A stretch of 64,000 bases of DNA. Origin: Desulfatiglandales bacterium. Lineage in GTDB: Bacteria > Desulfobacterota > DSM-4660 > Desulfatiglandales > Desulfatiglandaceae. The DNA lies in the NCBI GenBank assembly GCA_963662465.1, contig OY759599.1, forward strand, positions 4,064,001-4,128,000. The letters run 5' to 3'. Below the pieces are notes generated by a model. That model was not told the DNA's origin. It saw only the letters and a program-made list of their open reading frames with translations, and did not search any database. The position numbers and the translations under genes are program-made. Shown here in pieces: positions 3,764 to 26,532 of this stretch (position 1 is the stretch's first letter; each line of letters begins with the position of its first letter).

Positions 3764-4091
3764 AGCGGCGTCAGTAGCATATACGAAGATGAATGAAGCT
3801 GGTCAGAGTGTTTGACCGCAAGTGAAATGGGGCAGGTCTACTGTTGGCTGTTAGTCCTTTGAATGATAATTGGAATTCCGAGGATACTTAATTCCAACCA
3901 AAAAAATCACCGGATAAACCGGTGATTTTCATGTTGGGCCTGTGATGGCAAAGTCCTTGAGAAACAGTGCAAATACACAGATAGAAGTGTCTTTTTCAGC
4001 AACTTACGGTATACTATAAGATCCTAAAAAGAGAAAGATTTGGTTCGACTCGGTGAATGTAATTATAATCAGAAGTAAAGGAAAACAAAGA

Positions 4092-5276
4092 ATGAAAATC
4101 ACACAATTGGATATTGAGGGTTTCCGCTCTCTTCGAAATGTAAGCTGGTTTCCTGGTGATCTCAACGTGATTATCGGTCCTAACGGGACTGGCAAATCAA
4201 ATTTGTTACGATTAATGGAATTAATTTCCGTATCAGCACAGGGTAAACTCGGCAAATATATTCAATCGTTGGGTGGAATGGATCCGATTGTTTGGGACGG
4301 CACAGCTACTTCGATAAAGTTTGCCCTTGAGTCAATCCCTGAAGGAGGAGAGCTAGGTCCTGAACACTACGAGCTTGAACTAGCAAGGCTCGGGGCTGGA
4401 AGTTCATATAAAGTTGAAAAGGAACTTTTGATCAACTCTCATAAATTAAGGAAAAATATTGAAAAAAAACCATTTAAATTTCTAGAAAGATTCTCAAGGA
4501 CAGCTGTTATTTTTGATGAAACGGAACATACCTTTACTACTCCTGAAGAGTTTGTTTCAGAGGAGGAAAGTCTTCTTTCAATAGCATCAGGGCCATTTGT
4601 CAATAATCACTACATTCCACCTTTTCAACGGGAATTGGCATCTATTGCTGTTTATCATGATTTGCATACCAATAAGGACGCCTCTGTTCGTCAACCTGCT
4701 ATCTCTCGAATGGAAAAACGAGTTGATCCTGATGGACAAAATCTCATATCGGTTATGCATACGCTTTACACAGGTGATCGTGATTTTAAAAAAGATATAA
4801 ATTCTGCCATGCGAGCAGCATTTGGTGATGATTTTGAAGAGTTGGTTTTTCCTCCTGCGTCTGACCAGAGGATTCAAATGAGAGTTCGCTGGAGATCACT
4901 AAAGCGTGAGCAATCAGCTGCTGAGCTTTCAGACGGAACACTACGTTTTTTATTTTTGTTAACGGTGCTGGCAAGCCCATCACCGGCTCCAATTATCGCG
5001 ATCGATGAACCAGAGACAGGGCTGCATCCATCAATGTTGCCTTTGGTTGCGGAGTATGCAGTTGACGCAGCCACTAGATCTCAAGTTATTCTGACGACGC
5101 ATTCCCCACAATTCTTGGATGCTTTCGGTGGAACTCAGCCTACAACCACTGTTGCAACCTGGGAAAATGGTGAAACTTTATTAAAAACGCTAAAAGGAGA
5201 AAACCTTGACTACTGGCTGAACGAATACTCTCTGGGGGCTCTTTTTAAATCTGGAGAATTGGAGCAGATGATATGA
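4092..5276 (+). CDS. ABC/AAA_21-type ATPase
   Basis: Walker A GPNGTGKS, signature LSDGT, Walker B/D-loop IDEPETGLHP, H-loop TTHSP. Confidence 0.9.
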   Translation: MKITQLDIEGFRSLRNVSWFPGDLNVIIGPNGTGKSNLLRLMELISVSAQGKLGKYIQSLGGMDPIVWDGTATSIKFALESIPEGGELGPEHYELELARLGAGSSYKVEKELLINSHKLRKNIEKKPFKFLERFSRTAVIFDETEHTFTTPEEFVSEEESLLSIASGPFVNNHYIPPFQRELASIAVYHDLHTNKDASVRQPAISRMEKRVDPDGQNLISVMHTLYTGDRDFKKDINSAMRAAFGDDFEELVFPPASDQRIQMRVRWRSLKREQSAAELSDGTLRFLFLLTVLASPSPAPIIAIDEPETGLHPSMLPLVAEYAVDAATRSQVILTTHSPQFLDAFGGTQPTTTVATWENGETLLKTLKGENLDYWLNEYSLGALFKSGELEQMI

Positions 5277-5902
5277 GATTTGTTTTTTTTGTGGAAGGCT
5301 ATACTGAAAATAAGTCGCTACCTAAATTTTTAAAAAAATGGCTTGATCCAAGATTAGATAATCCTGTCGGGATTCGAACTATCCGATTTGAAGGATGGTC
5401 TGAACTAGTAAAAGACGCTCCTCGAAAAGCAAAAATGCATCTGAATGGGCCAGATAAAGGCGATATTATTGCCGTGATTTCTTTGTTGGATCTTTACGGC
5501 CCGACCTTTTATCCGAATCATATTGAAAACTACGATGAGCGTTATGAGTGGGGGAAAAAATATATTGAAGACAAGGTAAATCATTCACGTTTTTTTCAAT
5601 TTTTTGCAGTTCATGAAGTTGAGGCATGGCTTCTGAGTCAACCAGATATCTTCCCTCTTAAAGTCAAAAATGCATTCCCCCCAAAGATTCAAAATCCGGA
5701 ATTGGTAAACTTTAATGAACCGCCGGCAAAATTATTGGAACGTCTTTATCGTTTGCATGTAAAAAGATCATATAAAAAAGTCGTGAACGGGAAAGAACTT
5801 TTCGATAAACTCGATCCGAATATCGCATATCACAAATGTCCAAAATTTAAAGAGCTTCTGGATAAAATGTTAGAGTTAGCCCAACCAGACGCTACACATT
5901 GA
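5273..5902 (+). CDS. DUF4276-family (TOPRIM-like) protein
   Basis: FVEGYTE N-terminus, LLDLY and HEVEAWLLS motifs; coupled to the ATPase. Confidence 0.75.
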   Translation: MRFVFFVEGYTENKSLPKFLKKWLDPRLDNPVGIRTIRFEGWSELVKDAPRKAKMHLNGPDKGDIIAVISLLDLYGPTFYPNHIENYDERYEWGKKYIEDKVNHSRFFQFFAVHEVEAWLLSQPDIFPLKVKNAFPPKIQNPELVNFNEPPAKLLERLYRLHVKRSYKKVVNGKELFDKLDPNIAYHKCPKFKELLDKMLELAQPDATH

Positions 5903-6095: not shown

Positions 6096-7265
6096 ATGAC
6101 GTCGCCAATTAAAGACAAGTATGCTATCGTTGGAGTGGGATACACGCCCCAGGGCCGTGTCCCTGGAAGAACATCTCTCAGTTTCCATTTGGAGGCGTCA
6201 GCCAATGCCATCAAAGATGCCGGCCTGAATAAAGACGATGTGGACGGTTTCATCTGTTACCGCCACTTTCCCGCCGCTTCGGATGAGGACGACCTGACGC
6301 CCCAATTTATCGCTCAGCAACTCGGGATTTCCCCCGCCTACGTCAGCCAGGACGGCAACTGATCGCGAAATCACCTTCAGCACGCAGTTGGCGCGCTCGA
6401 ACTTGGTTTATGCCGTTACGTTCTTATCTCCTATGGTCACAATGCCCTTTCCAGCGACAGCATGTTTCAGATGCTTATGACATTATCAGGCGATGATGCC
6501 GTCTTCGGCCATTTTGGCGCCACCGGCGGTTATGCGCTCGCTGCCAGAAGGGCCATGCACCAATTCGGCACTGGACCTGAAACCTGGAAACAGATTGCCG
6601 TTGGGCAGCGAAAGTGGGCCAACCTCAACCCGGCCGCCATGATGCATGACAAGCTCATGACCGAAGCGGATTACGACAACGCAAGGTGGGTTGTCGAGCC
6701 GCTACGCCTGCCTGACAACTGCCTGATTAATGATGGCGGCCGCGCTATTATCGTCACCTCCCTTGAGCGGGCACGCGACCTGAAACAGCCTCCGGCAGTA
6801 ATAATGGGGATGGGGATGCACAATCCCTCGACGGTCATTGCTCAGTCCGACTGGATGGCTGGGCCCAGCGGCGCCAAACAGGCCGGAGAGGCAGCTTTTA
6901 AAATGGCGGACATCACCCTGAATGATGTGGATGCATGCCAGACCTATGACTGTTTTACCTACACTGTGGAACTCACTCTCCAGGACTATGGTTTTTTTAA
7001 ACCCGGCGAAGGGCGCGATTGGTTCCAGGGCGGAACGATTGAACCCGGCGGCAGGATGCCGGTGAATACTTCAGGCGGGCAGCTTTCGGAAGCCTACTTC
7101 ATGGGTCTGACGCCCATCGCCGAAAGCGCTGTGCAGCTTATGGGCCGGTGCGGGAAACGACAGCTCGGCCCCGCCACCCGGACCAAAGCGCCTGAGATTA
7201 TAATGTGTAGTGACAATGGTGGTATTTTGCAGAGTCACGCATGCATCCTGCTAAGGAGGTTGTAA
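6096..7265 (+). CDS. Thiolase-fold (SCP2/Ltp2-like) protein with in-frame UGA at codon 89, putative selenocysteine
   Basis: ORFs 6096-6362 and 6462-7265 share a frame with 33 open codons between. Motifs AIVGVG, CLINDGG, YDCFT, NTSGGQLSEAY. Hairpin at 6376-6401. Confidence 0.75.
6376..6401 (+). promoter_or_regulatory. SECIS-like hairpin
   Basis: TTCAGCACGC-AGTTG-GCGCGCTCGAA; loop begins 23 nt after the UGA with GU at loop positions 2-3. Confidence 0.5.
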
Positions 7266-7267
7266 CG

Positions 7268-7687
7268 ATGCCATACGAAAAACCATTGCCAAAACTCAAT
7301 GGCGACAACACCCCCTTTTGGGAGGGGTGTCGCCGGCATGAACTCAGATTTCAGCAATGCAACGATTGTGGCCACGTCAGATGGCCGCCGTCCGATCTTT
7401 GCCCCCAGTGCCATTCCACTGAAATCAACTGGTTGATTTCCAAGGGGATCGGCAGGGTATACACATTTGCTGTCTACCACACCGCATTCCATTCGGGATT
7501 CGCAACCGACGTGCCATATACTGTGGCCGTCGTGGCGCTCGATGAGGGACCCCACCTTCTAACCAATATTGTCGACTGCCGACCCGATGAGGTGAGATGC
7601 GACATGCCGGTAGGGGTATTTTGGGAGGATGTCGACGAAAGAATAACACTGCCGAAATTCAAGCCATTATCGTGTGTCCGGGCATAA
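7268..7687 (+). CDS. DUF35/ChsH2-like Zn-ribbon OB-fold protein
   Basis: FWEG, CxxC...CPxC, G.VYTF, VALDEGP motifs; typical thiolase-fold partner. Confidence 0.9.
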   Translation: MPYEKPLPKLNGDNTPFWEGCRRHELRFQQCNDCGHVRWPPSDLCPQCHSTEINWLISKGIGRVYTFAVYHTAFHSGFATDVPYTVAVVALDEGPHLLTNIVDCRPDEVRCDMPVGVFWEDVDERITLPKFKPLSCVRA

Positions 7688-10138: not shown

Positions 10139-10250
10139 ATTTACGCCTTGTCTTTATAACGCATGGCATTAAGAGAGGTCGGCCTAATGGTTTCCCTCAG
10201 CTCTTGAAGCATGCGGGTTTTCCGGCCGCTGCAAGCGGTAAGGAGTCATA

Positions 10251-11078
10251 TTGATGTTTTGTTTTGGTCGTTTTTTTTGGTTTTCATGCCTTTTTGGGGT
10301 TATACCCGCTTTGATATTCTTCCCTTGCGGAGCCGGCTGTGAATCGGAGATGCCGCCCACGGCCCTACAAGTCAAGCAGAATGCCGAAGCATCCGTGAAA
10401 ATCCGTCGTATGAGTCAGAAACGCATCGATGCATGGGCGGATGAAGAAGAAAAAATGCGTTCAGAAATTTCGAGTCTTGAGAAAGATCTAGATACGCTCA
10501 AGTGGAGACGGCAAAAGACCGACACGTATCTCCTGGATCTGGAACAAAAAATGGCGGCTTTAAATGAAGGAAGCCGTGCGGCTAAAGAGATTCAGGATGA
10601 ATTGGAACCTTTTCTGGAAAAAACCCTTCAGGATCTGGAAGCGTTTTCCGAAAATGAATTGCCGTCCCTGAGGGAACTTCAAAGCCCCGGTCTTCAATCG
10701 GCCAAGGAAATGCAAAATGATGCGGATGCCGATATGGTCCGGAAAACCCGCGGCCTGCTGGAGGTTCTCATGCGGGCCGTGGAATACGGATATTTCGTGG
10801 AACCGGACCAGACCGATATCGGTATCGATGAAAAGACCATTCGCGTCAAACGCATCAGCGTAGGACGATTGGGGCTCTTTGCCCTGAGCGCCGACGGAGA
10901 TCAAGCCTGGAAATGGCAGACTGAGAAAGAGCAATATGAACCGATTCCCCATTTTGCCGGCGCCATTCGGGAAGCCATCCAGATTTGTGAACGAAGGCGT
11001 TTGGTGGAATTGGTGAAATTGCCCATGGGACCCCCTGTCAGCCCCCCCGTTAGCTCTGACAAGGAGGTGAAAAAGTGA
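10251..11078 (+). CDS. DUF3450/TtpB-like TonB-system coiled-coil protein (copy 1)
   Basis: Signal peptide, coiled coil, EYG and VGRLGL motifs; precedes a long ExbB. Confidence 0.75.
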   Translation: MMFCFGRFFWFSCLFGVIPALIFFPCGAGCESEMPPTALQVKQNAEASVKIRRMSQKRIDAWADEEEKMRSEISSLEKDLDTLKWRRQKTDTYLLDLEQKMAALNEGSRAAKEIQDELEPFLEKTLQDLEAFSENELPSLRELQSPGLQSAKEMQNDADADMVRKTRGLLEVLMRAVEYGYFVEPDQTDIGIDEKTIRVKRISVGRLGLFALSADGDQAWKWQTEKEQYEPIPHFAGAIREAIQICERRRLVELVKLPMGPPVSPPVSSDKEVKK

Positions 11079-25672: not shown

Positions 25673-25704
25673 GGAAGAAACGCTTCCAGTGGTAAGGAGC
25701 AACA

Positions 25705-26532
25705 TTGATGTCTCGTTTTTGTAGTTTTTTCGGGTTCTTATTCTTTTTTTGGGTCATACCTGCGTTTGTATTCTTCCCTTGCCAGGCCGGCTGTGAATCG
25801 GAGGTTCAACCCACGGCCCTGCAAGTCAAGCAGAATGCCGAAGCATCGGTAGAAATCCGTCGTCTGAGCCAGAAACGCGTTGATGCCTGGGCGGATAAAG
25901 AAGAAAAAATGCTCTTGGAAATTTCACGCCTTCAGAAAGATCTGGATGCGCTCAAGTGGAGAAGGAAAAAAACCGATACCTATCTCTCGGATCTGGAAAG
26001 TAAAATGGCGGCCTTAAATGAAGGAAGCCGTGCGGCAAAAGAGATTCAGGATGAATTGGAGCCTTTCCTGGAAAAGACCCTTCAGGACCTGGAAGCGTTT
26101 TCCGAAAATGAATTGCCGTCCCTGAGGGAACTTCAAAGCCCCGGTCTTCAATCGGCCAAGGAAATGCAGAATGATGCGGATGCCGATATGGTCCGGAAAA
26201 CCCGCGGCCTGCTGGAGCTTCTCATGCGGGCCGTGGAATACGGATATTTCGTGGAACCGGACCAGACCGATATCGTCATCGATGAAAAGATCATTCGCGT
26301 CAAACGCATCAGCGTGGGACGATTGGGGCTCTTTGCCCTGAGCGCCGACGGAGATCAAGCCTGGAAATGGCAGCCTGGGAAAGAGCAATATGAACCGATT
26401 CCCCATTTTGCCGGCGCCATCCGGGAAGCCATCCAGATCTGTGAACGAAGGCGTCTGGTGGAATTGGTGGAATTGCCCATGGGACCCCCTGTCAGCCCCC
26501 CTGTCAGCTCTGACAAGGAGGTGGAAAAGTGA
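25705..26532 (+). CDS. DUF3450/TtpB-like (copy 2)
   Basis: Close paralog of 10251-11078. Confidence 0.75.
   Translation: MMSRFCSFFGFLFFFWVIPAFVFFPCQAGCESEVQPTALQVKQNAEASVEIRRLSQKRVDAWADKEEKMLLEISRLQKDLDALKWRRKKTDTYLSDLESKMAALNEGSRAAKEIQDELEPFLEKTLQDLEAFSENELPSLRELQSPGLQSAKEMQNDADADMVRKTRGLLELLMRAVEYGYFVEPDQTDIVIDEKIIRVKRISVGRLGLFALSADGDQAWKWQPGKEQYEPIPHFAGAIREAIQICERRRLVELVELPMGPPVSPPVSSDKEVEK

Follow-up and report, generated by a model that had tools for sequence, protein, structure and literature searches.

Several described enzymes pair a protein of the thiolase fold with a DUF35 protein. They include the steroid aldolase TcLtp2–ChsH2 (6OK1), the bile acid aldolase CtSal–Shy (9MYR), the SCP2-type and archaeal DUF35-associated thiolases (6ESQ/6ET9, 7YVY, BbsAB 7PXP and 6HSP), and PhlC and MucB (5M3K, 5MG5 and 9VBO). 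The locus described here lies in a 64,000-nucleotide stretch of a Desulfatiglandales bacterium (contig OY759599.1, positions 4,064,001–4,128,000); this whole stretch is referred to as the window, and its own numbering is used throughout. The locus comprises a thiolase-fold gene (6096–7265, + strand), interrupted at codon 89 by an in-frame TGA that is almost certainly read as selenocysteine (Sec), and a DUF35 partner gene (7268–7687, + strand). The thiolase-fold gene, which databases split in two, very likely encodes a single selenocysteine enzyme common to many anaerobic bacteria.

Ltp2 has Gly in its nucleophile loop and a YDHF motif, whereas in the protein described here residue 89 is Sec or Cys, the motif is YDCF, the loop is shorter and a linked ChsH1/ChsH2 hydratase is absent. 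In Sal, the nucleophile position is occupied by Gly and that of the second Tyr by Gln352. Compared with the SCP2-type and archaeal thiolases, the His of HDCF and the His of GHP are both exchanged for Tyr, the turn after the nucleophile is shorter, Sec stands for Cys, and the family forms a clade separate from the Cys-bearing SCP2-type proteins. PhlC and MucB form a covalent acyl enzyme, and PhlC resembles the family in its Asn-Cys nucleophile and active-site Tyr; they differ in keeping GHx, lacking HDxF and needing an HMGS-like subunit, at 19–20% identity. An earlier note on this DNA had taken DUF35 pairing as a mark of aldolases. That distinction does not hold, as the archaeal acetoacetyl-coenzyme A (CoA) thiolase, BbsAB and PhlBC pair with DUF35 too (PMC12329534), and the Cys nucleophile is kept in the DUF35-paired archaeal thiolase and in PhlC (PMC6392133).

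A thiolase-fold gene with a single in-frame TGA

From the ATG at 6096 to the TAA at 7263–7265 the gene has 389 codons, counting the TGA as Sec, and this TGA (codon 89, 6360–6362, + strand) is its sole internal stop. The product matches Thiolase_C_1 (PF22691), and its model has a predicted local distance difference test score (pLDDT) of 88.6. The TGA and the 389-residue open frame had been proposed in the earlier note, and the frame check confirms both, along with the motifs SQDGN-U-SRNHLQHAVGALELG, YDCFT (residues 284–288) and EAYF (residues 332–335). Public protein collections store the gene as fragments of 88 and 267 amino acids, in clusters of 33 and 95 members, respectively. The TGA codon is covered by a difference-free 947-base contig, from a run that may be that of the source sample, and by contigs from two other studies, with no difference at this codon among the differences listed (8 more are unlisted). 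A relative of the same genus, with 98% identity, carries the label Desulfatiglandales.

Related loci were taken from genomes (the best 80 of 225 matches) and from metagenomes (the best 80 of 449); the two sets partly coincide and include near-duplicates. Of the 80 genome loci, 56 have TGA at column 89 and the remaining 24 a Cys codon (TGT or TGC), with corresponding counts of 76 and 4 in the metagenome loci, which is the exchange of Sec and Cys that the earlier note had proposed as a check. The column thus holds TGA (132/160) or Cys in every locus and never TAA or TAG, and no gene has a further stop. Because the same codon is TGA in so many related loci, the TGA is neither chance nor a sequencing error. 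Cys occupies this column in 120/120 of the full-length proteins listed from databases, a list that leaves out TGA genes by construction. In an even sample of the phylum the family is present in 11 of 401 genomes, eight with TGA and three with Cys.

A nonsense mutation, or a true split into proteins of 88 and 267 residues, would account for the presence of both fragments in databases, and the hairpin downstream of the TGA (described below) is weak on energy alone and lacks covariation. The distribution of codons argues against such a broken gene, since one column exchanges TGA with Cys alone; the earlier note's alternative of a simple nonsense mutation, with no other TGA examples, fails on the same counts. 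Moreover, codons 90–122, which lie between the two stored fragments, are open and conserved, both sides of the TGA are under purifying selection (rough ratio of non-synonymous to synonymous substitution, dN/dS, of 0.04–0.16 against 10 close TGA relatives), and SelA is found in every TGA genome tested. A broken or split gene therefore has a negligible probability. Recoding as Sec is strongly supported by the TGA/Cys column, the conserved hairpin and the Sec machinery.

A conserved hairpin and the selenium machinery

A hairpin at 6376–6401 (+ strand) is predicted to be the selenocysteine insertion sequence (SECIS), with a core at 6381–6395 (CACGC-AGTTG-GCGCG) and a loop at 6386–6390. This element, named in the earlier note, is present in the predicted fold, but its stability is no better than that of shuffled sequences (z of −1.15, with 28 of 200 shuffles equally good). 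Its support comes from conservation, not from energy. Synonymous fixation at codons 99, 98 and 97 is 1.00, 0.93 and 0.91 in TGA genes, the top three of 108 four-fold sites (median 0.51; 57 TGA rows), whereas in Cys genes codon 99 reaches just 0.65 and codon 97 just 0.42. The GT of the loop and four stem pairs are kept in 133/133 TGA rows; the fifth pair is A-T in 81 and mismatched in 52 of these rows, and one stem pair is A-C in 48. The core, CACGC-AGTTG-GCG(C/T)G, is selected beyond protein coding. Stem covariation was not detected (term of −0.02, one double change among 44 sequences, 44 of the 57 supplied) in a core that is almost invariant. The spacing from TGA to hairpin equals that after the TGAs of SelD, FdhA and MvhD in the same genome.

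The full hairpin is still present (codons 96–100) in three genes with a Cys codon (L036, L069 and L072), which are likely to be recent Sec-to-Cys reversions. The genome of L072 has no SelA match, possibly through incompleteness.

The source genome encodes SelA, SelB, SelD and tRNA-Sec. SelA was found in 26/26 TGA genomes tested (26 of the 56) versus 17/24 Cys genomes (Fisher p of 0.0035, uncorrected for kinship or genome incompleteness). In the genome of L037, which has the TGA form, the selA match (G092:C19:11766-13127) holds one in-frame TAG. The source genome is rich in selenoproteins; on its contig G000:C1, 9 of 16 MvhD/FlpD matches have an in-frame TGA, and one of these nine (7658251–7658619) has two.

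Fold and active-site residues

The fold matches of the model are 4U4E, 6OK1, 9MYR and 6ESQ, with aldolases at the top. The NCBIfam aldolase models PRK07855 (231 bits, cut-off 469) and PRK06158 (274 bits, cut-off 421) remain below their cut-offs. Strand β3 is modelled at residues 82–85, and the following helix starts only at residue 93. The earlier note had placed residue 89 at the thiolase nucleophile; it does lie in the β3–α3 nucleophile loop, but its exact position is split between alignments, with two putting U89 on the canonical Cys and three putting it two residues later. The number 89, although it matches classical thiolases, is not proof of position because the loop of the family, at 28 residues, is three residues shorter. 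At the position two residues after U89, an Arg (Arg91) is found and not the Ser of CxS. In the alignments, the pattern E/D-x-x-C/U corresponds to E-A-A-C in 6ESQ and 7YVY and to E-T-L-C in the SCP2-type thiolases.

Both His motifs of the thiolases are missing in 120/120 proteins. The YDCF motif (6945–6956, + strand; Tyr284 and Cys286) aligns with HDCF of SCP2 thiolases and with YDCY of Sal, and is also invariant in 80/80 metagenome loci; Tyr334 (7095–7097, + strand) aligns with the GHP-motif His and with the second Tyr of Ltp2. Tyr284, Cys286 and Tyr334, all invariant, retain the aldolase-type Tyr base (YDxF/Y) and proton donor, whereas the Gly of the Ltp2 and Sal nucleophile loop is replaced by Sec or Cys in 160/160 loci. 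Tyr55-Arg56 (6258–6263, + strand), part of a four-residue insert, is invariant in 120/120 proteins and a candidate binder of an anionic substrate. Asp373-Asn374-Gly375 (7212–7220, + strand) occupies the CxG loop, with no Cys, and Asp373 is found in 120/120 members of the family. The invariant Arg56, Arg91 and Asp373 hint at a charged acyl group, such as a dicarboxylic one.

Gain of the residue on an aldolase-like scaffold

A sister clade of 120 proteins, mostly 51–55% identical to the query, has Gly at the position of residue 89 in 120/120, a 31-residue loop in 119/120, and the same YDC motif and Tyr334; the Tyr55-Arg56 insert is a gap in 120/120 and Asp373 is found in 0/120. This large, uncharacterised clade (P0124 and P0328–P0446), several members of which are labelled Chloroflexota, carries the database label acetyl-CoA acetyltransferase; its members combine a nucleophile-loop Gly, YDC(F/Y) and the second Tyr and are likely to be aldolases. 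In the wider radiation, reached by profile search at approximately 30–40% identity, 110 of 125 full-length representatives have Gly and none (0/125) has Cys at the canonical nucleophile position.

The family and its sister clade form one branch with a Shimodaira–Hasegawa-like approximate likelihood ratio test (SH-aLRT) value of 100, far from the Cys-bearing SCP2-type proteins. Forcing the family to group with the latter was rejected by the approximately unbiased (AU) test (difference in log-likelihood of 220, p-AU of 2e-91), carried out on a quick tree with the loop columns removed and with 8 family and 15 thiolase-motif rows against 50. Residue 89 is therefore not a thiolase Cys that was kept, as the earlier note implied; the nesting among Gly-bearing proteins and the rejected grouping indicate that an aldolase-like scaffold acquired the chalcogen. 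Cys, and then Sec, was gained together with a three-residue shortening of the loop, on an intact aldolase-type site of Tyr284, Cys286 and Tyr334.

A quick tree of 81 members, with column 89 masked, needs six changes between Cys and Sec, compared with a mean of 21 after shuffling. Cys rows lie at the base, and within the Sec group Cys arises again about five times, from which we infer a single gain of Sec followed by about five reversions to Cys; only two changes are forced by the starred branches, and the position of the root depends on a single long branch.

The same ancestry lends weight to a retro-aldolase, or an enzyme of β-addition and elimination, with Sec89 in a second role. In such an enzyme a 3-hydroxyacyl-CoA would be split by Tyr284, Cys286 and Tyr334 in the manner of Sal and Ltp2, while Sec89 would trap the aldehyde as a hemiselenoacetal or add to the β-carbon of an enoyl-CoA. 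Consistent with this are the nesting in a Gly-bearing aldolase-like radiation and the AU result, the YDC motif and second Tyr that are invariant in the family and the sister clade, the aldolases among the best fold matches, the register that three alignments shift by two residues, and the hydratases near a minority of loci (enoyl-CoA hydratase in 10/160, MaoC in 3/160). However, the characterised aldolases need no residue at this position, where the Gly amide of Sal binds the hydroxyl (PMC12329534) and a side chain would crowd the binding site, and the strict conservation of Cys or Sec, with the gain of Sec, better suits a main catalytic role. An aldolase of this kind is a less likely alternative.

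A proposed selenium-dependent thiolysis

Thiolysis by way of an acyl-selenoester is the best reading of the site, to be held tentatively at somewhat under an even chance; thiolysis and other acyl transfer taken together are moderately favoured. Strict retention of Cys or Sec in the family, against its absence from the sister clade, suggests that a new catalytic requirement arose. The Gly amide in the nucleophile loop of Sal contacts the substrate β-hydroxyl, and the authors conclude that Gly rules out thiolysis (PMC12329534); the new residue is for this reason best read as a nucleophile for the β-carbon.

In the proposed mechanism, SelB would read the hairpin and Sec would be inserted at position 89 of a protein that, like Ltp2, Sal and BbsAB, would assemble with DUF35 into an α2β2 complex. 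The selenolate would attack the β-keto carbon of a 3-oxoacyl-CoA, which the loop would face, and the resulting tetrahedral alkoxide would break like an aldol alkoxide, with cleavage between C2 and C3. The CoA-enolate would be held by the two Tyr residues, which stand where thiolases have His and Asn (Asn316 and His348 hold the enolate in the Zoogloea thiolase; PMC3406046). Cys286, which matches the Cys that serves as proton donor in Sal and the SCP2 thiolases (PMC12329534), would protonate the enolate, and CoA would then remove the acyl group from selenium. The aldolase scaffold would in this way become a thiolase through its newly gained nucleophile. The low pKa of Sec (5.2, versus 8.3 for Cys; PMC13188914) would suit, and offset, a site without the GHP His. 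The acyl-selenoester itself is what we infer from these comparisons.

An acyltransferase resembling PhlC and MucB would also place an acyl group from acyl-CoA on Sec89, and would then pass it to a small-molecule acceptor rather than to CoA or an acyl-CoA enolate. PhlC, however, retains His347 and acts together with an HMGS-like subunit, and no HMGS-like family recurs among the neighbours of the present genes (56 + 20 chosen neighbours scanned). PhlC and MucB also lack HDxF (PMC12960953), where the family has an invariant YDCF, and the low identity given above separates them further. This alternative is improbable.

In a redox enzyme, a selenenylsulfide would link Sec89 to Cys286 while a substituent is reductively removed from acyl-CoA and the Tyr pair holds the enolate; this would parallel glycine reductase, which couples Se–C cleavage with Se–S formation (PMC10298544). 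Redox enzymes make up most catalogued selenoproteins (PMC13188914), and Cys286 is invariant. Nevertheless, a CxxU-type motif is absent, neither a thioredoxin nor a reductase is a recurrent neighbour (the nearest is a C_GCAxxG_C_C protein, in 7/160 loci), and invariance of Cys286 extends to the sister clade, which has no chalcogen at residue 89. Redox chemistry is accordingly quite improbable.

Returning to thiolysis through the acyl-selenoester, the enzyme could be the first C–C-cleaving selenoenzyme, a proposal with nearly as much for it as against it. A retro-aldolase lineage would independently have re-invented thiolase chemistry with a Cys in a shortened loop, later Sec, and would cleave or form acyl-CoA C–C bonds with the set of two Tyr and one Cys in sulfate reducers and syntrophs. 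In class I amidotransferases, the acyl-carrying nucleophile occupies the position of the Sec of GxUxG. A glutamine-amidotransferase selenoprotein with this motif (PMC12013277; Table 1 of PMC13188914), which occurs in a sulfate reducer, is a predicted precedent in which Sec would carry the acyl group at the nucleophile elbow; it differs in its unrelated fold and in its amide chemistry instead of C–C cleavage, and is known by prediction only.

Absence from selenoprotein catalogues

No thiolase is included in Table 1 (119 prokaryotic selenoprotein families) in the available part of a May 2026 review (PMC13188914), in the text and four supplements of deep-Sep, or in the main text of BSepDB. No model of NCBIfam 20.0 reaches its cut-off for the gene product, and no prior description was found in a wider literature search. 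The gene thus apparently represents a real, unpublished selenoprotein family, fairly widespread in the sampled phylum genomes, that annotation pipelines split. The enzyme occurs naturally with Gly (in the sister clade), with Cys and with Sec, at 50–90% identity, a series that makes testable both the benefit of Sec in non-redox nucleophilic catalysis and the interconversion of aldolase and thiolase chemistry on a common scaffold. Should the acyl-selenoester prove real, the family would be a natural selenium-dependent catalyst that cleaves or forms C–C bonds, useful in biocatalysis and in tracing the routes of anaerobic degradation.

The DUF35 partner and genomic context

The DUF35 gene encodes 139 amino acids with a zinc ribbon and an OB fold (PF12172 and PF01796) and begins 2 bases past the stop of the thiolase-fold gene. 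Its start is most likely the ATG at 7268, which follows AGGAGG, and not 7241. The pairing suggested in the earlier note is strongly supported: DUF35 lies directly downstream in 80/81 loci and in 71/72 metagenome loci with room for it, and the two exceptions (L042 and L128) have identical upstream sequence. All four Zn-binding Cys residues are invariant in 75/75. DUF35 is a stand-alone gene, neither fused to nor linked with a MaoC hydratase, which occurs within 3 kb in the three loci counted above. No conserved operon beyond DUF35 was found in the 160 loci and in family scans of the 56 + 20 chosen neighbours. The acyl-CoA enzymes near a minority of loci fit, without proving, a role in acyl-CoA catabolism. 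Carriers of the family include Desulfatiglandales, Desulfatitalea, Syntrophales, Smithella and Desulfarculaceae, and those of the Cys form include Dehalococcoidia and Desulfurella. Among cultured carriers, Desulfatitalea alkaliphila M08but (L035) has the TGA form and Desulfurella acetivorans A63 (L102) the Cys form.

In three related loci (L070, L076 and L077) the gene pair lies 13–35 bases directly downstream of a squalene-hopene cyclase gene. In the source genome, a 122-base remnant of the 5′ end of the gene, 97% identical, is found at G000:C1:6613700-6613579 (− strand); it comprises approximately 83 upstream bases and the first 13 codons, followed by unrelated sequence, and is a vestige left when the gene pair was duplicated or relocated.

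Within the window, the gene pair is flanked on one side by an AAA_21 ATPase/DUF4276 pair and on the other by a gene for a TonB-dependent receptor. The ATPase and DUF4276 genes, in this order at 4053–5902, are a possible toxin–antitoxin or defence pair; the 98% identical relative (L005) lacks DUF4276 and shows the ATPase as fragments. The region of a DUF3450 gene at the start of an ExbB-type cluster (10227–11000), in a match that may extend past the stretch tested, has a second copy at approximately 25681–26454 with 90% identity.
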